From NCBI GenBank assembly GCA_963666975.2, contig CAXVYR010000004.1, forward strand, positions 1,696,001 to 1,760,000: DNA of 64,000 nucleotides, in the 5' to 3' direction. Positions within the stretch are counted from its first letter, which is position 1, and the number at the start of each line of letters is the position of its first letter. The DNA is from Terriglobia bacterium. GTDB taxonomy: Bacteria; Acidobacteriota; Terriglobia; 2-12-FULL-54-10. Position numbers and translations under genes: made by a program. The notes under the pieces are model-generated. The model had not been told where the DNA came from. It did no database searches and saw only the letters and a program-made list of their open reading frames with translations. Positions 40,367 through 51,500 of this stretch are shown in pieces.

Positions 40367-40502
40367 CAAAGGAGCGCCTCCTGGGGGCTCTTTCCCCGCC
40401 TGTATACACTCTGTTGAAAGCACTTCCTGGAGTAGTGAACCGCCGGGTTATCCAGGTTATCATGACAAGGGGACGAATACGAAGGCAGATCGGGGGTAAT
40501 GG

Positions 40503-41717
40503 GTGACGAATCAGACACAGGGTTTCGATTCCTCGATGCACAAATGGATGAATCTCAAACCATGGCTCCGCGAGGCAGCCGGACAACTGGGTTTTGACCT
40601 GTGCAGCATCGCTCCGGCTTCACTGCCGGAATTGGACCGGGCCCGGTATCTTTCGTGGCTCGAACGCGGATTCCAGGGCGAGATGAAGTATATGGAGCGA
40701 GAGCAGCGGCGGGACCTGCGGCGGCTGCTGCCCAGCGTCCGGTCCGTCATCTGCGCAGGAATGGTTTACAACACCCCGCATCCGAAATCCGTTGAATGCC
40801 CCGACCCCGCTCGCGGATGGATCTCCCGCTACGGCTGGGGAGAGGATTACCACCTTGTGCTTCGCGAGCGCCTGGAAAAGCTGCTCGAAGGATTGCGCCG
40901 GGAGGCCGGGTCTCCCTTTGAGGCGAAGATTTGCGTGGACACCGCGCCGCTGCTCGAACGCGCCGTTGCGCAGGCAGCAGGGATAGGGTGGATCGGGAAA
41001 AACACCTGTCTGATCCGCGAGAAAGCCGGTTCCTGGTTTTTGCTCGGCGAGATACTAACCAGCTTGGAGCTCGAGCCCGACCAGCCCGCGCCGGACCGCT
41101 GCGGCACCTGTACACGCTGCATTGACGCTTGCCCCACAGCAGCCATCGTGGAACCCTACGTTCTGGATGCCACGCGCTGCATCTCCTACTTTACGATTGA
41201 ACTCAGGGGTTCCATTCCTGAAGCGTTTCGTCCCGCCGTCGGGCGTCATCTTTTCGGCTGCGACATCTGCCAGGATGTGTGCCCGTGGAATAGCAAAGCG
41301 CCCGTGACGACGCTGCCGGAATTTCAGCCGCGACCCATCCCAGCCGCGGACGGGGAATCGCAACCCGAAGGCCAGCCGGTTGTTCCCAGCACCTCTGTTC
41401 CCAGTACCCCTGTTCCCAGCACCTTCAACCCGCCTCTGGAATGGATGGCCTCGCTGAGCGAGGAAGAGTTTCGCCGGACATTTCGCCGCAGCCCCATCCA
41501 GCGCGCACGCTACCGGGGCATGCTCCGGAACGCGGCAGTCGCCATGGGCAATTCCCGTCAGGAGCGGTTCCGTCCGCTACTCGATAAGCTGGCTGAGCAC
41601 CCCGACCCTATGGTCCAGGAGCATGCGCGCTGGGCTCTGGAGCAGTTAGAAGAGAACCCACCCCAGCCCCCGTTGCAACCGAAAAACTTCGGGACTCCGG
41701 CCTCTGGATTGGATTGA
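40503..41717 (+). CDS. queG: epoxyqueuosine reductase
   Basis: ISRYGWGEDYH, VDTAPLLER, GWIGKN, CGTCTRCIDACPT, FGCDICQDVCPWN; start codon uncertain. Confidence 0.95.
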   Translation: MTNQTQGFDSSMHKWMNLKPWLREAAGQLGFDLCSIAPASLPELDRARYLSWLERGFQGEMKYMEREQRRDLRRLLPSVRSVICAGMVYNTPHPKSVECPDPARGWISRYGWGEDYHLVLRERLEKLLEGLRREAGSPFEAKICVDTAPLLERAVAQAAGIGWIGKNTCLIREKAGSWFLLGEILTSLELEPDQPAPDRCGTCTRCIDACPTAAIVEPYVLDATRCISYFTIELRGSIPEAFRPAVGRHLFGCDICQDVCPWNSKAPVTTLPEFQPRPIPAADGESQPEGQPVVPSTSVPSTPVPSTFNPPLEWMASLSEEEFRRTFRRSPIQRARYRGMLRNAAVAMGNSRQERFRPLLDKLAEHPDPMVQEHARWALEQLEENPPQPPLQPKNFGTPASGLD

Positions 41718-41724
41718 AACGGAG

Positions 41725-43233
41725 TTAACGTGCTTCGACTGAGAGCGACTCCTGCTCGGGGGCGCAGATGGCCCGGGTCAAGGTCTGGAAGTGATACCCC
41801 ATGATGGCCAGCATGATGGCTGTGCCGAAGGAGTGGCGATAGCGCGTGGCGGCTTCCAAAAAGAACTTCCAATAACTGATGCGGGAATCGCCCAGGATGC
41901 CTTGCTTCAGGATGGACCGTGCCAGGGCGAGGTAATCGGATCGGGAGCGAGCGACCTTGTGCGTGGGGCGGTGTTGGGCCAGGAATTTCCGCACGCGCTC
42001 ATAATAGGCGTCCGGGTGGTAGATGCGCTGGAGGATGTCCCTGTAGCCTTCCACCAGCCGCTGCGGATTCATCTTGGGAATAAAGTTCAGACTTAAATTC
42101 ATGTTGTTGCCGTGGCCCTCATCCACGATACGGCCTTCCTTCATGAGTCTGCGGTAGAGCTGCGTGCCGGGCAGGGCCAGCAGCAGCCCCACCATCGCCA
42201 GCGGGATGGCGCTCTCCTGGATGAACTCCACCTGCCTATCGAAGATGTCTTCCGGGTCGTTGTCAAAGCCCACGATGAAGCCCGCCATCACCTCCATGCC
42301 ATAGCCCTGGATGCGCTGCACGCTCTCCATCAGATCGCGGCGGGTGTTTTGCAGCTTCTGGGCCTCTTTCAGGGAGGCTTCCACCGGAGTCTCGATGCCC
42401 AGGAAAACGCGGATGAAGCGTGCATCCTGCATCATCTGCAGCAACTCCAGGTCGTCGGCCAGGTTCAGCGAGGCTTCCGTAAAAAAGGTAAACGGCTGCT
42501 TGCGCCGGCTATTCCACTCCGCCAGCACGGGGAGCAGCTTTTTGACCTCCCGTTTGTTGCCGATAAAGTTGTCGTCCACAATGAAAACCGACCCTCGCCA
42601 GTTGTGCTCGTAGAGCTGCTCCAACTCGGCCACCACCTGGGCCGGAGACTTTGTCCGGGGCGTGCGCCCGTAAATCTCAATGATGTCGCAGAACTCACAG
42701 TTGAACGGGCACCCTCGCGAGTACTGGATGGCCATGGAACTGTAGTGCTTGGGGTTGATGAGGCTCAGATCGGGCAACGGCGTCTTGCTGAGGCCGGGAC
42801 GCTCCGCGGCGGTGTAGAGGGGTTTGGCCGTTCCCCGCTCCAGATCGGCTGCGAGCCCGGCAACCAACTCCTCGGCCTCGCCGATCACCACATGGTCGGC
42901 GTGCTGGGGAAGCTCCTCCACGCTGCTGGTTACAGGCCCTCCGATCACCGTCGGCAGCCCGCGCGAACGGCAGCGCGCCAGAAGCTCCAGCAATTCCTGC
43001 TTATGCACCAGCATCCCGCTCAGCAGAGCCACGTCGGCCCACTTCAGGTCGGCTTCGGTCAGCCGCCGGATGTTGGTATCGACCAGACGCTTGTTCCAGT
43101 GTCCGGGCAGCAGCGAGGCAATCGTCAGCAGGCCCAGCGGCGGATAGACAGAGCGTTTACCCTCAAACGACAATACGTGCTTAAAACTCCAGTAGGTGTC
43201 GGGCCACTCCGGATAAATAAGAAGAGCATTCAT
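41725..43233 (-). CDS. B12-binding radical SAM protein (DUF4070-type C-terminus)
   Basis: PPLGLLT, GGP, SRGCPFNCEFC, DDNFIG, GFIVGFDND. Confidence 0.92.
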   Translation of the reverse strand: MNALLIYPEWPDTYWSFKHVLSFEGKRSVYPPLGLLTIASLLPGHWNKRLVDTNIRRLTEADLKWADVALLSGMLVHKQELLELLARCRSRGLPTVIGGPVTSSVEELPQHADHVVIGEAEELVAGLAADLERGTAKPLYTAAERPGLSKTPLPDLSLINPKHYSSMAIQYSRGCPFNCEFCDIIEIYGRTPRTKSPAQVVAELEQLYEHNWRGSVFIVDDNFIGNKREVKKLLPVLAEWNSRRKQPFTFFTEASLNLADDLELLQMMQDARFIRVFLGIETPVEASLKEAQKLQNTRRDLMESVQRIQGYGMEVMAGFIVGFDNDPEDIFDRQVEFIQESAIPLAMVGLLLALPGTQLYRRLMKEGRIVDEGHGNNMNLSLNFIPKMNPQRLVEGYRDILQRIYHPDAYYERVRKFLAQHRPTHKVARSRSDYLALARSILKQGILGDSRISYWKFFLEAATRYRHSFGTAIMLAIMGYHFQTLTRAICAPEQESLSVEAR

Positions 43234-43423
43234 ATCGTTAGTCAGTTCCCCAGTCAGTTCCCCGGTTTCTCTCGAATGAAAAATGGAAGCCATTCATGGT
43301 ATAGCCCAAGCCGCCAGCACACAACCTCTAATTAGCCGGAAGGCGGCAAGTTCAGCCTGGACGGTGAATCCTGCGGGTGAATGGCAGTTCGCGGAAGCGC
43401 GAGGGTGCTGACTGCGCCCACCC

Positions 43424-44035
43424 TCAATTTTGCCAGCCGATTTCCCGCGCGCGCAGCTCCTCTTCCAGTTGGGACAGGGAATGGAACTGAACTGAGTCAA
43501 TGCCCTGGCGGCGGGCTGCCTCCACGTTGGAGGCGATGTCATCGGTGAAAAAACATTCTTCCGGGCGGCAACCGGCGCAGCGAATCGCCTCCTGGTAAAT
43601 TTCCGGAGAGGGCTTCAACGCGCCGACCTCGTAGGAGAGAACATAGCCGTCAAAGTGTCCGAGGAGGGGATACTTTTCCCGGGCCATGGCAAAGTGAATG
43701 GTGTTGGTGTTGGACAAAAGAAGCAAACGATGACGGCTGCGGATACCCAGCAACAAGCTCTCCGGGATCAGCGTCTCCGGCAGAAAGATGGTGCTCCAAA
43801 GCTCCCAGAACTCGGAATAGCTGACATCGAGATCAAGGATGCGGCTAACCTGCTCGACAAAACTTTCGGGAGAGACCTGGCCCGTCTCAAAAAGTTGCAC
43901 CAGCCCGGTCGAGCGGATGCGCGCGGGGATTTCCTGCGCCGGGTAGGGACACAACTTCTCCAAAGCCGAGTGGCATTGGCTGAAATCAATCGGCACAATC
44001 ACGTTGCCCAGATCGAGCATCACGGTTTTGGTCAT
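43424..44035 (-). CDS. HAD family phosphatase
   Basis: DLGNV, LSNTN, KPSPEIY, DD motifs. Confidence 0.92.
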   Translation of the reverse strand: MTKTVMLDLGNVIVPIDFSQCHSALEKLCPYPAQEIPARIRSTGLVQLFETGQVSPESFVEQVSRILDLDVSYSEFWELWSTIFLPETLIPESLLLGIRSRHRLLLLSNTNTIHFAMAREKYPLLGHFDGYVLSYEVGALKPSPEIYQEAIRCAGCRPEECFFTDDIASNVEAARRQGIDSVQFHSLSQLEEELRAREIGWQN

Positions 44036-44061
44036 TCGAAGTGGTGGCCGGTCCCTTTACA

Positions 44062-44102
44062 ATAAAAGAAGCCCCACAACCGACAAAATCGGCGGAGGCT
44101 TC
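44062..44102 (-). terminator. intrinsic terminator-like hairpin
   Basis: GAAGCCTC...GGGGCTTC followed by TTTTATT on the minus strand. Confidence 0.6.
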
Positions 44103-44146
44103 AAGGTTTACCCCGGTTAAGGGGCTATCCTGCGAAACCTTGTTAT

Positions 44147-44182
44147 ATTATAGCTGACCGATGCCTGCCCGCAATCCACAAC
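44147..44182. repeat. type II-C CRISPR-like repeat, copy 1
   Basis: ATTATAGCTGACCGATGCCTGCCCGCAATCCACAAC. Confidence 0.75.
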
Positions 44183-44637
44183 AATTTTTTGCTGCTAAAC
44201 TGTTTTAGATAATTCGCAAAGTCGGCATAATCCTTTTCAATCTTCGCCGTGTTTTCTGCGGTGTAAAAATCCGGATTTAGATAATTCTTAGTGTTGCAGT
44301 CGCCGAAAGAGGTCCAATCATAAGCGGTAATAAGCACGGTTGAAGACTGCGGGTCGCTTAAAAATTGTCTGAAGTCTGATCTTGCGGCAAGATTAGCTAA
44401 ACGAGAGTTCTGGATACAAGTACCATCTTTATAATCTATATCTGCCTTCGGCCCAATATAAATTCTTATCGCTCCCGCGCCTAAATCATTCGCAAGGTCC
44501 AAGCTTTTAGACATCAAGGCGTCGCCGCTATATCCAGAAACACTGCCGCCCCCAAAATACGGCCCGAACGCTGTTTGCGCCGAAACAACGGCCGGGACAA
44601 AAAAAACGGCGAAAAGCGCCAGCCCAAAAATCATCAA
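44183..44637 (-). pseudogene. AT-rich secreted protein, possibly glycoside-hydrolase-like, cut at the repeat
   Basis: Signal peptide, LGAGAIRIYIG; the ORF runs into repeat 1 and stops at its far edge. Confidence 0.55.
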
Positions 44638-44703
44638 TTTTTAATTTCTAAACATATTTGCAGCAAAACTATTCATTAATAATCGTAATAGCAAATTTAA
44701 TGT

Positions 44704-44734
44704 AAAAAAACACCCGGCCAAATTGGTCGGGTGG
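44704..44734 (-). terminator. intrinsic terminator
   Basis: CACCCGACCA-ATT-TGGCCGGGTG followed by T7. Confidence 0.7.
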
Positions 44735-44787
44735 TGCCCAAAGAACTATTCCGTTGTTCCCAAGCTGATCGGAAGAGTTGAGGGTTA

Positions 44788-45801
44788 TTATTTTGGCGCC
44801 GCGCCATCAATAGATGATACGGTGAACCCCTCGTGGTTCAGATTCACGTGTAAAGCCACAAATCCTAGTTGAAGGCCGTTCACAGACTCCACTGTCATAA
44901 GCCCCGCAGAATCAAGAGGAAGGGCGATGCCGAAATCATCTAACATTCCCGTTTTCATGCTCCGCGGCGGAATAGATATGCTAAAAGAACCCGGCGGCAA
45001 AGACACGTTGACTTCATTCCACTGGTCTGTGGGGTTTGTAAATGCCAGGCCTATACCGGTCCGCTTCAACGGCGAACTCGTCAGATTGTCGTAATAGACA
45101 GAATATTTTCTCGGCAAGTCCTCGGCATCCCAAGAGCGGACAAAAGTCTCGCTAAGGACAACGCCATCTCTAACATAGCGGTACCTCAGAGACACGCCAA
45201 CATCCAAAACGCCGCCTGGAGGGATTCCATTGCCACCAGTGTTGGGATATATCAGCCTTAACCCAGCCGCCGAGTCCTTCCCTTGATGGGAAAGTCAGCG
45301 TTGTGGCAGTCCAGTGTTGGGATAAATATCAGCCTTAACCCAGCCGCCGAGTCCTTCCCTTGATGGGAAAGTCAGCGTTGTGGCAGCGGCTGTTTTTTGC
45401 AAAAGCGGGAGCGTAACACTGCCGATGATCGGCAAACCAGCATAGGTTCCAAACGAACCAAAACTATGGATTGGTTCAATCAGCCTGCTTCCGTCATCTC
45501 TCCAGAAAATAAACAGAAAACTGATGGTGAAATTAGATTTGTTCTCGAAAACCAAGTCAGTTTCCCAGCCGTTGCGCAAAACATACCTCTCGCCGCTGAC
45601 AAGATCATCTTTCCCCACGACAGCGCCGTCGCTTATTCTGATATACTCATCGCCGCCACCCAGAGCAAGATGCGGCATAACATACCTTGCGACCGGCGCT
45701 GAATTTCTATTTTGCTCATCCAACCTGGTAACCTGGGCAAAAGACCGGTTGCCCAGAAAAGAAAAAATCAATCCTACATAAATCAATCAGCGCCTTCTCA
45801 T
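44788..45801 (-). pseudogene. secreted hypothetical protein broken by an early TGA and a ~75-bp tandem duplication
   Basis: RBS GGAGG, ATG 45801, TGA 45787-45789; MPHLALGGG...WETDL; duplication 45236-45309 / 45311-45386 shifts the frame. Confidence 0.6.
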
Positions 45802-45829
45802 GCCACACCTCCATTCCCATTTTCAGAAT

Positions 45830-45865
45830 ATTATAGCTGATCGATGCCTGCCCGCAATCCACAAC
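45830..45865. repeat. type II-C CRISPR-like repeat, copy 2
   Basis: One mismatch to copy 1. Confidence 0.75.
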
Positions 45866-45879
45866 TCACGGCGGTCGCT

Positions 45880-46005
45880 TCACGAAAGATCAAACAGCAG
45901 AATCTCCGCCTCGCCGTTCCCGTCGTTTTCTTTGCCGACGCTCAGTTCCAGCAACTCTTCATTGCCGGCCTCTGCGCTGACTGCGGCCCCGTCGCCCGCC
46001 TGGAG
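45880..46005 (-). pseudogene. diverged duplicate of the pirin 3' end
   Basis: LQAGDGAAVSAEAGNEELLELSVGKENDGNGEAEILLFDLS* versus the intact pirin LQAGDGAAVSAKRNEDEMLELSAGNEAEQNGEAEILLFDLS*. Confidence 0.85.
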
Positions 46006-46024
46006 CCCCACAGAAGCGCGGGGT

Positions 46025-46321
46025 TTAGGCCGTCGGTTGAGGCTCGTAGCGCTCGACCTGGATTTGATCCTGGTGCTTGCGCGCTTGGGCCAACTCGTAG
46101 GCTGTTTGCAAGCGGAGCCAATGATCGGCGTTGGACCATCCGGCCTTCTCCAGGCGGATTGCCATGTCCGGAGAGATTCCGGACTGGCCGTTGATCACGC
46201 GCGAAAGCGTATGGCGGGTAACGCGCAAGACCTTCGCGCCTTCGGTCACGCTGAGTTCGAGCGGCTCCAAGCAGGCATCCTTGATCGAACGGCCCGGATG
46301 TGGCGGGTTTTTCATGGGCAT
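46025..46321 (-). CDS. higA: HigA family antitoxin
   Basis: [29 protein letters not shown]. Confidence 0.92.
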
Positions 46322-46339
46322 AGCGGTTGCTCCTTTTTG

Positions 46340-46618
46340 TTAGTGATAGTCGACGAGGTCGACCTCATAAGCATCCCCGTCCTCAAAGCGAAAAGTGATG
46401 CGCCAATTCCGGGAGATCGTCACGCTCCAGTGGCCCTTCCGGTCGCCCTTGAGCGGGTGGAGACGATAACCCGGTAAATCGAGATCTCCAGGGTCTTGTG
46501 CTTTGTCCAGATGGAACAGCACGTCGCGGATGCGGTCGAGATGGTCGGCGCGGATTTTGCTGCCGTCACTTTGCTCATAAAGCCGCTTCAGGCCCCGGTG
46601 TCGAAAACTCTCGATCAT
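46340..46618 (-). CDS. higB: HigB/RelE family toxin
   Basis: MIESFRHRGL, RLHPLKGDRKGHWS, NWRITFRF, DYH. Confidence 0.92.
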   Translation of the reverse strand: MIESFRHRGLKRLYEQSDGSKIRADHLDRIRDVLFHLDKAQDPGDLDLPGYRLHPLKGDRKGHWSVTISRNWRITFRFEDGDAYEVDLVDYH

Positions 46619-46741
46619 AGAAAATGTAACATGCAATGTTGCACGTCGCAACCGGAACGTATTCCTAGCCGGGGCCGCACGGTATTTGGCATCAGGAATT
46701 GCGCTTCATGAGATGAAGGAAACGTAACCGCGTAGCTCCAT

Positions 46742-46777
46742 ATTATAGCTGACCGATGCCTGCCCGGAATCCACAAC
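46742..46777. repeat. type II-C CRISPR-like repeat, copy 3
   Basis: One mismatch to copy 1; 15 bp downstream of the pirin stop codon. Confidence 0.75.
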
Positions 46778-46792
46778 GCGGTAGCAACGAAA

Positions 46793-47539
46793 TCACGAAA
46801 GATCAAACAGCAGGATTTCCGCCTCGCCGTTCTGCTCGGCTTCATTCCCGGCGCTCAACTCCAGCATCTCGTCTTCATTCCTCTTGGCGCTGACTGCGGC
46901 CCCATCGCCCGCCTGAAGTGAATATCCGTTCAGGACAACCGCGCCCCTCGCCGTCTGCACCCAGGCGTGGCGGCCGGGCCGCAGACGATGCGTCACGCGC
47001 TGTCCGGCACTCAGGCGGGCCACGTATAAATCCGCATCCTGATGGAGGGTGACCACACCATCTCGCCCTGCTTTATTCCCATCCTCATCCCCCGCCGCCA
47101 GAAGAAGCAAAGCTCCCCGTGCTTGCTCCATCGGGAAGGCGCGCTGCTCGTAGCTGGGCTGGATGCCTTGCGTTCGCGGCAAAATCCATACTTGGAAAAG
47201 GTGTACCTGCTCGGATGGGGAGTGGTTGTGCTCGCTGTGGGTCACGCCGGTGCCGGCGCTCATGCGCTGCACCTCTCCCGGACGAATCACCGATCCGTTG
47301 CCCATGCTGTCCTTGTGATCGAGCGAGCCTTCCAGGACGTAGGTAACGATCTCCATGTCCCGGTGCGGATGGGCGCCGAAGCCCTGCCCCGGCGCAATGA
47401 AGTCTTCATTCAGCACCCGCAGATGGCGAAAGCCCATGAAATTCGGATCATAGTAGTGATCGAAGGAAAAACTGTGGCGGCTGTCGAGCCGGCCTAGCCG
47501 CGTATGCCCGCGCTCACTGCCCGGTCGCAACCGAATCAT
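46793..47539 (-). CDS. pirin family protein
   Basis: GFGAHPHRDMEI, HKDSMGN, MSAGTGVTHSE. Confidence 0.95.
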   Translation of the reverse strand: MIRLRPGSERGHTRLGRLDSRHSFSFDHYYDPNFMGFRHLRVLNEDFIAPGQGFGAHPHRDMEIVTYVLEGSLDHKDSMGNGSVIRPGEVQRMSAGTGVTHSEHNHSPSEQVHLFQVWILPRTQGIQPSYEQRAFPMEQARGALLLLAAGDEDGNKAGRDGVVTLHQDADLYVARLSAGQRVTHRLRPGRHAWVQTARGAVVLNGYSLQAGDGAAVSAKRNEDEMLELSAGNEAEQNGEAEILLFDLS

Positions 47540-47711
47540 TGCTGCCCCCTCCCTTGCTTTTTAAGGTTAACACAGAGGAATGGTTCAGACGGGACAAGGC
47601 CTGGCACCGTTGCCGCAACAAGAACGCTTGTCCCCGGAAACAGCGGAGGCTTATAATTCTTCTTTGTTGCGACATTGGAATCTCACGTTGTCCTTCCCCG
47701 AAACAATCCGA

Positions 47712-50545: not shown

Positions 50546-50634
50546 ATCAGAGCCGCGCGCGCAAGCAAGCGGGCAAACGCGCTGGATTGAGCCCCTGCCC
50601 GAATGGTCCGCTCCCTTGCGGTCGCGGCTCTGAT
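50546..50634. repeat. REP-like inverted pair
   Basis: atcagagccgcgcgcgcaagcaagcgg ... ccgctcccttgcggtcgcggctctgat. Confidence 0.6.
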
Positions 50635-50714
50635 TGGTTTTCACACAGACTCTTGAGCCGCTGAGGGCTATCGATAATTTCACGCAATGCGCCGAGATGA
50701 ATTGAGGAGGATTG

Positions 50715-50867
50715 ATGGAAAATCTTTTTTGGGCCTATGCGATAGTTTGGATCTTGCACGTGGGATACCTGCTGAGCTTGGCCGTGCGGCAGAACAGCCT
50801 GCGGCAGGAAATCTCCACCCTGAAAGCCTTGGTCGAACAGAAAGGGCAAACCACGGGCGGACGCTGA
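50715..50867 (+). CDS. ccmD: CcmD family protein (50 aa, not in ORF track)
   Basis: RBS GAGGAGG; MENLFWAYAIVWILHVGYLLSLAVRQNSLRQEISTLK; follows ccmC. Confidence 0.8.
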   Translation: MENLFWAYAIVWILHVGYLLSLAVRQNSLRQEISTLKALVEQKGQTTGGR

Positions 50868-50958
50868 AAAAGCCCTTACTGTGGCTTTCCCGGCTGATGT
50901 CCTGGAGAATGCTTGGAAACAAGAATCGAGGCGGACAGGAAGCCGTAATATACGAAGT

Positions 50959-51500
50959 TCACCATATTGCAGCGACCCTCGTCTTCTTGCCGCCTCGCTC
51001 AATATAAACAAAAGCATGCTTCCGGCCAAATTCAAATAATTTACGCGTAAGCAGCACGTCGCACTTGCAATACCGTTCCAACGCCTTGATCTTTCGCTCC
51101 CGGTACAAGCGAATAGCCTGCAATCCATCCGCTCCTTTCTTTTCTTCCAGGGTTGTGGTTACCAGGTCATCCAGCTTCGGTCGAAAACCAAGGTCTCTTT
51201 CGCACCTTTTCATTATGTCCACTGTTTTATACCGTTTTCACAAATGGTGTAGACTCGCACGGGCCGAAATCCGAGCCGCGACTGTAAAGGAGCGACCACG
51301 AAACGTTGGTTGGCCGATCATCGCTGGATGGCCGCTCCATAACTGTCGCGGCTCTGACGGTCTACACCATTTGTGAAATTGCTCTAGGCCCAACAGGTCC
51401 TACCGCGCCATAGCGGTCCAGCACCAAGTAGTCGAATCCCAAGAGGTTGAAACACACAATCTGATCCGCTTTGTGAATCTCTTCCAGCAGCAAAGCCGCG
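50959..51500 (-). pseudogene. RNase H-like (YprB-type) exonuclease, split by a MITE and 5'-truncated
   Basis: FNLLGFDYLVL...GPKTVDIM...KLDDL...YCKCDV; frame is restored when the MITE is removed. Confidence 0.75.
51228..51386. mobile_element. MITE of the same TIR family, with TA duplication
   Basis: Perfect inverted core TTTCACAAATGGTGTAGAC; internal REP pair gagccgcgactgtaaaggagcg / cgctccataactgtcgcggctc. Confidence 0.8.

Follow-up and report, generated by a model that had tools for sequence, protein, structure and literature searches.

Remains of a type II-C CRISPR-Cas9 locus with gene-bearing intervals between its repeats in a Terriglobia bacterium

The window analyzed here is a stretch of 64,000 nucleotides (nt) from the genome of a Terriglobia bacterium (GenBank assembly GCA_963666975.2, contig CAXVYR010000004.1, positions 1,696,001 to 1,760,000 of the forward strand). 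It contains three copies of a 36-nt repeat, called R1, R2 and R3, which are separated by kilobase intervals that carry genes. The repeats are the remains of a type II-C locus of the CRISPR-Cas9 kind, situated between a gene for a HAD-family hydrolase and a pirin gene. One deletion removed the anti-repeat of the trans-activating CRISPR RNA (tracrRNA) together with cas9, cas1, cas2 and the leader, and joined the tail of the tracrRNA gene to R1. Such a relic locus, having recombined with DNA of other lineages, probably accounts for both the repeats and the intervals between them. The three repeats are as follows.

R1, 44147 to 44182, minus strand: the reference 36-mer, without mismatches, joined straight to the tracrRNA tail.
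R2, 45830 to 45865, minus strand: one mismatch, C12>T (T at position 12); probably the terminal repeat of the resident array.
R3, 46742 to 46777, minus strand: one mismatch, C26>G (G at position 26); a terminal repeat that would have arrived with an imported patch.

As read on the plus strand, the 36-mer at 44147-44182 is ATTATAGCTGACCGATGCCTGCCCGCAATCCACAAC, and the other two copies lie on the same strand. The minus strand of each repeat, which corresponds to the sense of the CRISPR RNA (crRNA), is GTTGTGG...GCTATAAT and faces the minus-strand genes. The identity among the three copies extends over 38 nt, as each copy is preceded by AT, and it ends abruptly after ...CACAAC. No match to the 36-mer was obtained in 100 dinucleotide-preserving shuffles, and a search of the whole genome (4,234,367 bases in 4 contigs) allowing up to 3 mismatches returned only the three copies in the window. 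The intervals, measured between the 36-nt repeats, are 1,647 nt (R1-R2) and 876 nt (R2-R3). All genes between 43424 and 47539 are on the minus strand, and the order of elements is the HAD hydrolase gene, R1, two genes for proteins with signal peptides, R2, a 132-nt stump of the 3' end of pirin, higA, higB, R3 and an intact pirin gene. An earlier sequence-only reading of this DNA had placed the 36-mer at 44147, 45830 and 46742, with two copies one base off, AT ahead of each copy and a sharp AAC boundary, and these particulars are all correct. Its interval sizes of about 1.65 kb and 0.88 kb and its description of their contents likewise agree with the open reading frames (ORFs), the Pfam matches and the homologues. 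The same reading had the minus strand of the repeat ending in TATAAT and oriented toward the cargo genes, which are indeed all on that strand in the window. No Rfam family matches the repeat or the tracrRNA region; only sub-threshold chance matches were found.

The 36-mer is a bona fide type II-C CRISPR repeat, because near-identical repeats form arrays of 36-nt repeats and 30-nt spacers beside cas9-cas1-cas2 or cas2 in other genomes. A species collection holding one genome per species was scanned with the exact 23-nt core of the repeat. The core is present in 4 genomes, one of them being the Acidobacteria metagenome-assembled genome (MAG) B32T1B5. In three other organisms a near-identical repeat forms regular arrays, where the spacers are 29-31 nt long in 58 of 58 cases.

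Array of 39 repeats, on the chromosome of an unclassified bacterial MAG, following Cas2.
Array of 18 repeats, in an Elusimicrobia MAG, following Cas9 (TIGR01865, 644.6 bits), a type II Cas1 (cas1_NMENI, 271.6 bits) and Cas2.
Array of 4 repeats, at the end of a contig (L009) of a Nitrospinota MAG, preceded by ORFs of the size of cas9, cas1 and cas2 (judged by size alone).

The Nitrospinota and Elusimicrobia loci have a full tracrRNA upstream of cas9, as does B32T1B5. The identification of the repeat as type II-C, made earlier from its sequence, is therefore upheld by regular arrays that adjoin cas9-cas1-cas2 or cas2, and with arrays of 39, 18 and 4 copies at hand the notion that the repeat never occurs in true arrays is disposed of. 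A survey of 401 genomes of the phylum found 11 other type II loci, and all 11 have ordinary arrays with spacers of about 30 nt. Kilobase intervals occur in none of these 11 loci and in none of the three arrays with a near-identical repeat, being found only in two genomes of the genus to which the window belongs. When the 58 true spacers were compared with the genome of the window and with the B32T1B5 locus, only chance matches of 13-23 nt were seen, none of them in the cargo between R1 and R2, called cargo A below. A scan of metagenomes also returned three contigs (L032, L033 and L034) from other organisms, each with a solitary variant of the repeat that has one mismatch. These solitary repeats adjoin IS3-family transposase genes and occur in at least two other genomic contexts. 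Presumably they represent arrays disrupted by insertion sequences and have no bearing on the cargo in the window.

The same chromosomal site was found in two congeners, and the genus shows three states of one locus: intact in B32T1B5, gutted in the window and erased in a genome designated G001. B32T1B5 (G002) is 83% complete. Its site reads, from the left, QueG, a B12-radical-SAM gene, the HAD gene, a 190-nt intergenic region with the tracrRNA, cas9, cas1 and cas2, and then 48 nt, a repeat, 779 nt, a second repeat, 14 nt, pirin and a gene for a CarboxypepD_reg protein. No fourth adaptation gene stands between its cas2 and the repeats. The flanks of the window locus are 90.4% identical to it over 40668-44136 (contig L004, 1-3447) and 86.5-90.2% identical on the pirin side. 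The cas9 gene encodes 1025 amino acids and scores 715 bits over the whole model, with RuvC and HNH motifs present in the alignment; cas1 scores 273 bits, and comparison with a genome that has a normal array gives 45% identity for Cas1 and 66% for Cas2. The tracrRNA lies on the minus strand between HAD and cas9 (fold z -4.87). Its anti-repeat pairs with the whole repeat, bar a few wobbles and a bulge, and is followed by a CCCC/GGGG hairpin and a strong terminator. Both the tracrRNA and the crRNA are encoded on the other strand from the cas genes.

The 779-nt segment between the two repeats of B32T1B5 (contig positions 23946-24724) is unrelated to the cargo in the window. It has a GC content of 52% and two small plus-strand ORFs, one of which, of 127 amino acids, was found in 1 of 41 other relatives, with 30% identity. 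The cargo gene in this segment is antisense to the -10 element of the repeat. B32T1B5 thus has an apparently intact Cas9 system with only two repeats; were the 779 nt transcribed from the repeat, a guide could be formed by no more than the final 20-30 nt. The second congener, G001, is 95% complete and matches window positions 40382-44036 with 84% identity. It has only about 49 nt between the start of HAD and pirin, and neither a repeat nor a tracrRNA was found at its HAD-pirin site. Its pirin is a pseudogene, with an internal deletion of about 512 bp and fragments containing stop codons (L031, G001:C7 6165-6300). Variation of the cargo among relatives, which the sequence-only reading had proposed to look for in the HAD-pirin interval, is thus real, with an unrelated 779 nt in one congener and an empty site in the other.

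The left side of the window locus consists of the following two features.

43424 to 44035, minus strand: HAD-family hydrolase gene (Pfam Hydrolase/HAD_2), which forms the conserved flank to the left of the former CRISPR-Cas site.
44060 to 44146, minus strand: tracrRNA remnant, recognized in alignments (A1, A4) with the tracrRNAs of B32T1B5, Nitrospinota and Elusimicrobia; fold z -2.65.

The remnant retains the final ATAAC of the anti-repeat, the CCCC/GGGG tail hairpin, a terminator hairpin at 44068-44102 and a T-run. The anti-repeat proper is gone and the sense repeat R1 stands in its place, the junction between the tracrRNA tail and R1 reading CTTGTTAT directly followed by ATTATAGC. Throughout the genome no Cas9 was detected (the best match scored 22 bits against a cut-off of 100), no Cas2 was found, and neither tblastn nor blastn gave a match to the cas9, cas1 and cas2 of B32T1B5. 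As the genome has no Cas9 or Cas2, the repeats are no longer able to serve immunity or to acquire spacers. The sequence-only reading, which had noted the lack of cas genes and proposed a former Cas9 locus, was right about the locus itself, the one cas gene found farther off in the genome being an unrelated lone Cas1; the true arrays elsewhere, the tracrRNA-cas9-cas1-cas2 set at the same site in the congener and the retained tracrRNA tail all speak for the former locus.

The lone Cas1, of 369 amino acids, is situated about 370 kb away (G000:C4:2110249-2110881, L013). It scores 86.8 bits with a generic cas1 model, no subtype model rises above its cut-off, and it adjoins transposase genes of the IS3/IS481 type. 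The stem of the tracrRNA terminator differs in sequence between window 44068-44102 and L004 3376-3410 and pairs fully in both of these two sequences. The HAD start codon is about 25 nt downstream of the T-run of the terminator in both genomes (window 44036-44067, L004 3343-3375), so that transcription of HAD has to run through the tracrRNA gene or begin inside it. Loss of the cas genes by recombination between the anti-repeat and a repeat was considered and rejected, as the inverted orientation of the two would lead to an inversion and not to a deletion.

The interval between R2 and R3, together with the intact pirin gene beyond it, can be divided as follows.

45866 to 46011, minus strand: 14-nt trailer and orphan pirin 3' end (the stump, 45880-46011), probably the resident allele.
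46012 to 46024: 13-nt junction linking the stump to the stop codon of higA; the sequence is homologous to B32T1B5 as far as 46011 and to the higBA of another genome, G031, from 46026 onward.
46025 to 46651, minus strand: higBA toxin-antitoxin module, with higA at 46025-46321 and higB at 46340-46618/46651, and with its own palindromic operator region.
46652 to 46741: about 90 nt between higBA and R3, covered by no higBA homologue and without a match in B32T1B5.
46778 to 47539, minus strand: 15-nt trailer and intact pirin (46793-47539; Pfam Pirin and Pirin_C_2), diverged in its 3' third (to about 47141).

The layout beyond R2, with a 14-nt trailer and then a pirin 3' end, is the same as that beyond R3, where a trailer of 15 nt leads into the live pirin gene. 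The stump, which consists of the last 132 nt of the gene, is identical to the pirin 3' end of B32T1B5 at 126 of 132 positions (95.5%) and to the 3' end of the window's own pirin at 107 of 137 (78.1%). Taken together with R2, the stump region is 92.4% identical to B32T1B5 (L007, 724-906). The live pirin is only 81.3% identical to B32T1B5 at its 3' end as against 93.7% (373/398) in its 5' part, and in bins along this side the identity is 0.81, 0.88 and 0.67 within 46741-47141 and 0.94-0.96 within 47142-47441. Since the stump is closer to B32T1B5 than is the 3' end of the live pirin, the stump and R2 would represent the resident, vertically inherited boundary of the array. The R2-R3 interval thus appears, from these alignments, to be a duplicated boundary between array and pirin and not a spacer.

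The patch from about 46012 to about 47141, comprising higA, higB, the following 90 nt or so, R3, the trailer and the 3' third of pirin, would have been imported from a third lineage of the same clade, one that is more distantly related. Its right crossover would have been homologous and situated inside pirin near 47141, while its left joint, within 46012-46024, would have been illegitimate, so that the whole event could be described as homology-facilitated illegitimate recombination. This would have left the boundary doubled and a mobile higBA module enclosed by two repeats. The module is recognized by Pfam (HigB-like toxin, 65.7 bits; HTH_3, 28.6 bits), and its coding part (46026-46651) is 84% identical at the nucleotide level to that of G031, a genome of another family of the same class, and about 66% identical to paralogues in its own genus. 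A duplicate of the pirin 3' end plus higBA is what the sequence-only reading had seen between the second and third repeats, and the pirin alignments and Pfam matches bear this out. In four metagenome runs, higBA is covered up to about 20 times as deeply as the sequence on either side of it, and many of its letters vary. This excess points to near-identical higBA modules in other, more abundant members of the community, and thus to a widely shared mobile module.

Cargo A, between R1 and R2, is a different kind of segment. It is unique in the genome and has a GC content of 47.1%, compared with 57.7% for the genome. It contains two genes, neither of whose proteins has a Pfam match.

44143 to 44637, minus strand: cargo A gene 2, signal-peptide protein of unknown function; C-terminus cut at R1, with the last 11 codons read from the repeat.
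44788 to 45801, minus strand: cargo A gene 1, secreted protein of unknown function; codon 5 is an in-frame TGA, and a second TGA comes with a tandem duplication of 75 nt (45236-45310).

Gene 2 is truncated within about 6 nt of R1, because its homologue in a Bacteroidia MAG (P0004, 41% identity) continues where the ORF in the window reads out of R1: it aligns up to ...KK and runs more than 60 residues past the cut. A further protein, P0002, encoded on another contig of 2.7 Mb in another assembly, has the same repeat-encoded C-terminus as gene 2. The description of this interval as holding AT-rich genes for secreted proteins, one of them cut at the repeat, is in keeping with the GC content, the signal peptides and the place of the truncation. 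The homologues of gene 1, P0006 (91%) and P0007 (59%), lack the 25-residue segment that is duplicated in the window, and the 75-nt duplication is skipped by one contig in each of the four metagenome runs. Either the duplication is polymorphic among strains or one assembly is wrong there. The TGA at codon 5 precedes an alternative TTG start, which aligns with an internal Met of P0007, and gene 1 may be intact in most populations. A donor of gene 1 with recoded TGA was rejected as unnecessary, one TGA being in an out-of-frame duplicate that is absent from the homologues and from the contigs of the runs. The Atlas neighbours are uncharacterised, those of gene 1 being commonest in Acidobacteriota and those of the gene 2 homologue in Bacteroidota, and serve as leads only. 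No match to cargo A DNA was found in collections of phages and plasmids.

Cargo A is best described as a foreign, low-GC fragment of 1.65 kb, which would have replaced whatever spacers lay between two surviving repeats. It could have entered when incoming DNA recombined with the locus, using the repeats as anchors, or by an illegitimate joint close by. These routes seem the likeliest and integration by Cas1-Cas2 less likely, and this is the least certain part of the account. A precedent exists in Neisseria meningitidis, where a fragment consisting of one repeat and a marker gene recombined with resident repeats, so that a gene came to lie beside a repeat, and the array was collapsed in 180 of 220 transformants (PMC12477760). 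Such repeat-mediated recombination is a plausible route to gene-sized DNA flanked by repeats; it differs from the case at hand in that the donor was engineered and the species is naturally competent, and the higBA patch also needs an illegitimate joint.

Several observations weigh against relic repeats followed by recombination. The edge of the deletion that took out the cas genes falls precisely on the start of R1 or no more than 2 nt away, which would be a coincidence if deletions were random. The junction between gene 2 and R1 is flush, within the resolution of an alignment at 41% identity, as an insertion of the integrase type would give. In the two members of the genus that retain repeats, every interval is of kilobase size (1,647, 876 and 779 nt) and normal spacers are lacking, which recombination does not specifically predict. 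AT flanks all three copies in the window, whereas only 1 of the 58 true spacers ends in AT. Cargo A was not found as DNA repeats in 101 relatives, its proteins had no match in the three array-bearing genomes (in searches without a positive control), and no donor was identified either for cargo A or for the imported patch. Some of these observations would be expected if the intervals were giant spacers, that is, if the type II-C Cas1-Cas2 of the genus had put kilobase DNA into an array collapsed to one repeat, with the repeat being duplicated each time. The sequence-only reading had listed giant mis-acquired spacers as a possibility. They would cover cargo A and the 779 nt of B32T1B5, and a crRNA could still come from the last 20-30 nt beside the downstream repeat. 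DNA of foreign composition is indeed bracketed by complete 36-nt repeats, one gene breaks off no more than about 6 nt from R1, and a second, unrelated kilobase segment is present in B32T1B5, whose cas9, cas1 and cas2 look intact, while neither repeat-keeping genome has a normal spacer. In Neisseria, collapsed II-C arrays are described as hyper-acquiring (PMC12477760). However, repeats nearly identical to those of the window are strictly associated with 29-31-nt spacers elsewhere (58/58), and the 11 other type II loci of the phylum are all normal. The R2-R3 interval holds the outside flank of the array itself, namely the trailer and the pirin 3' end, so that it was not made by integration. A flush junction can be demonstrated in one place only, and it would look no different had the joint fallen at any point within the final 6 nt of an earlier spacer. 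Duplication of the repeat by gap-filling also does not predict an identity of 38 nt, comprising AT and the repeat. Giant spacers are thus contradicted for R2-R3, where the boundary duplication suffices, and are possible but disfavoured for R1-R2 and for the segment in B32T1B5; as a whole they are an unlikely explanation. It is similarly doubtful, and if anything a shade more so, that the type II-C Cas1-Cas2, perhaps with Cas9, of this genus wrote kilobase, gene-bearing DNA into a one-repeat array, with B32T1B5 as a living example and the window as the same thing after loss of the cas genes. In that event, the deletion ending at R1 might even be a product of integrase transesterification where leader and repeat meet. 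Searches of the literature on giant or kilobase CRISPR spacers found no publication.

Other explanations have far less in their favor than recombination acting on a decayed locus. The repeats could be the recombination sites and portable promoters of a working, integron-like gene-capture array that has outlived the cas genes. The cargo does differ between species at the same site, and all cargo genes in the window point in the direction that the TATAAT of the repeat faces; moreover, higBA modules are of a kind typically found in chromosomal cassette arrays. Against this, no recombinase gene is present in or beside the intervals, as judged from Pfam matches of the ORFs between HAD and pirin, to which the search for IntI was limited. 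The 38-mer does not form an attC-like hairpin, its DNA folding with -0.7 and -0.8 kcal/mol, which 148 and 188 of 200 shuffles at least equalled. One fixed arrangement was seen in four populations from four studies, with no repeat-to-repeat joints among the contigs listed, although rare variants may be lost from contigs. Of the cargo genes, one has been truncated and a second is interrupted in this assembly. An active cassette array, as suggested in the sequence-only reading, is very improbable in view of the fixed structure, the missing hairpin and an R2-R3 interval that appears to be an imported boundary duplication. As for the portable promoter suggested along with it, the -10 element TATAAT is perfect, but the -35 element TTGCGG matches at 3 of 6 positions, at a distance of 16 nt, there is no TG extension, a consensus scan does not call the repeat as a promoter, no RNA run was listed for the locus, and the B32T1B5 cargo gene is antisense to it. 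The relic repeats may nevertheless contribute some transcription, as the TATAAT elements face higBA, cargo gene 1 and the tracrRNA tail. At R2 the TATAAT is followed by GGAGG and then by the ATG of cargo gene 1, 28 nt downstream of the repeat, a geometry that would fit an mRNA driven by the repeat. Promoters embedded in Neisseria repeats start transcription at about the 6th nucleotide of the spacer (PMC12477760). It is also highly unlikely that the intervals are eroded mobile elements that integrated site-specifically into CRISPR repeats. Integration of this kind is documented for the prophage PhiAP1.1, which enters the type II-A repeats of S. pyogenes through an 8-bp core and interrupts the repeat (bioRxiv 10.1101/2020.10.09.333658). 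Cargo A is foreign and higBA is a gene typical of mobile elements. However, the segments in the window are flanked by whole repeats and not by repeats split at an 8-bp core, as described for PhiAP1.1, and the locus has no integrase, no match to phage or plasmid DNA and no viral contig with the repeat core. The remaining explanation, that contigs of different strains were joined at the shared repeat during assembly, is exceedingly unlikely. Repeats are classic points of mis-joining, and the 75-nt tandem duplication is absent from the contigs of four runs. Yet in each of four runs, from four studies, one contig spans 43400-46147 and another 46591-47600, with 0-3 differences, so that together they bridge R1, R2 and R3, and P0002, on another contig, has the same repeat-encoded end. 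Independent contigs from four studies thus reproduce the structure, and the chimeric assembly that the sequence-only reading had named as a danger does not hold.

The locus may be compared with several known systems. The first comparison is with the type II-C loci of Neisseria meningitidis, which comprise tracrRNA, cas9, cas1, cas2 and 36-nt repeats whose embedded promoters drive transcription in the direction of cas2, and in which crRNA is encoded opposite to the cas genes. The window shares with them a 36-nt repeat that has GTTGT...ATAAT as its termini and carries a -10 box at the 3' end, and the spacers of the repeat family are 30 nt long; B32T1B5 shares the order tracrRNA-cas9-cas1-cas2-array and the position of the RNAs on the other strand from the cas genes. 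The window differs in having neither cas genes nor an anti-repeat, in the spacing of its three repeats at 1,647 and 876 nt and in the lack of a TG extension. Repeats of about 36 nt with spacers of about 30 nt are therefore a property of the family but not of the window, and a cas operon with a full tracrRNA is found in B32T1B5 but not in the window. Orphan or degenerate CRISPR arrays offer a closer likeness, for they too have genuine repeats in a genome without cognate cas genes (here without Cas9 or Cas2), and the intact state is preserved in a close relative. Orphan arrays are normally evenly spaced, whereas the intervals in the window are of kilobase size and carry genes, and one repeat is joined to the tail of a tracrRNA. 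Integron cassette arrays, or clusters of attC sites without an integrase, resemble the window in that direct repeats part gene-sized cargo, including a toxin-antitoxin pair, with no recombinase nearby; the window differs in its CRISPR repeat, in the lack of an attC-like hairpin, in the unshuffled cargo of four populations and in one interval that appears to be a boundary duplication. Like PhiAP1.1, the window has kilobases of foreign DNA inside a type II array, but the integrase, the whole prophage and the split repeat that go with PhiAP1.1 are not seen at this locus. The window locus is thus a further, unusually instructive case of a decayed CRISPR-Cas locus, which is a known kind.

Elsewhere in the window, at 50546-51378 downstream of the ccm genes, a family of inverted and direct repeats of 19-44 nt is clustered, having the core CCGCTCC...GTCGCGGCTCTGA. 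It includes a perfect 19-nt inverted pair 105 nt apart, and it may be a small repeat element.

The HAD-pirin site provides a snapshot of how a Cas9 system dies, with the intact, gutted and erased states at one chromosomal site. It also indicates that CRISPR repeats can come to bracket whole genes by ordinary recombination between lineages, which is a caution for anyone who would take kilobase "spacers" as a new activity of the integrase. If it were nevertheless true that a type II Cas1-Cas2 wrote kilobase DNA here, this would bear on the natural insertion of large DNA fragments.

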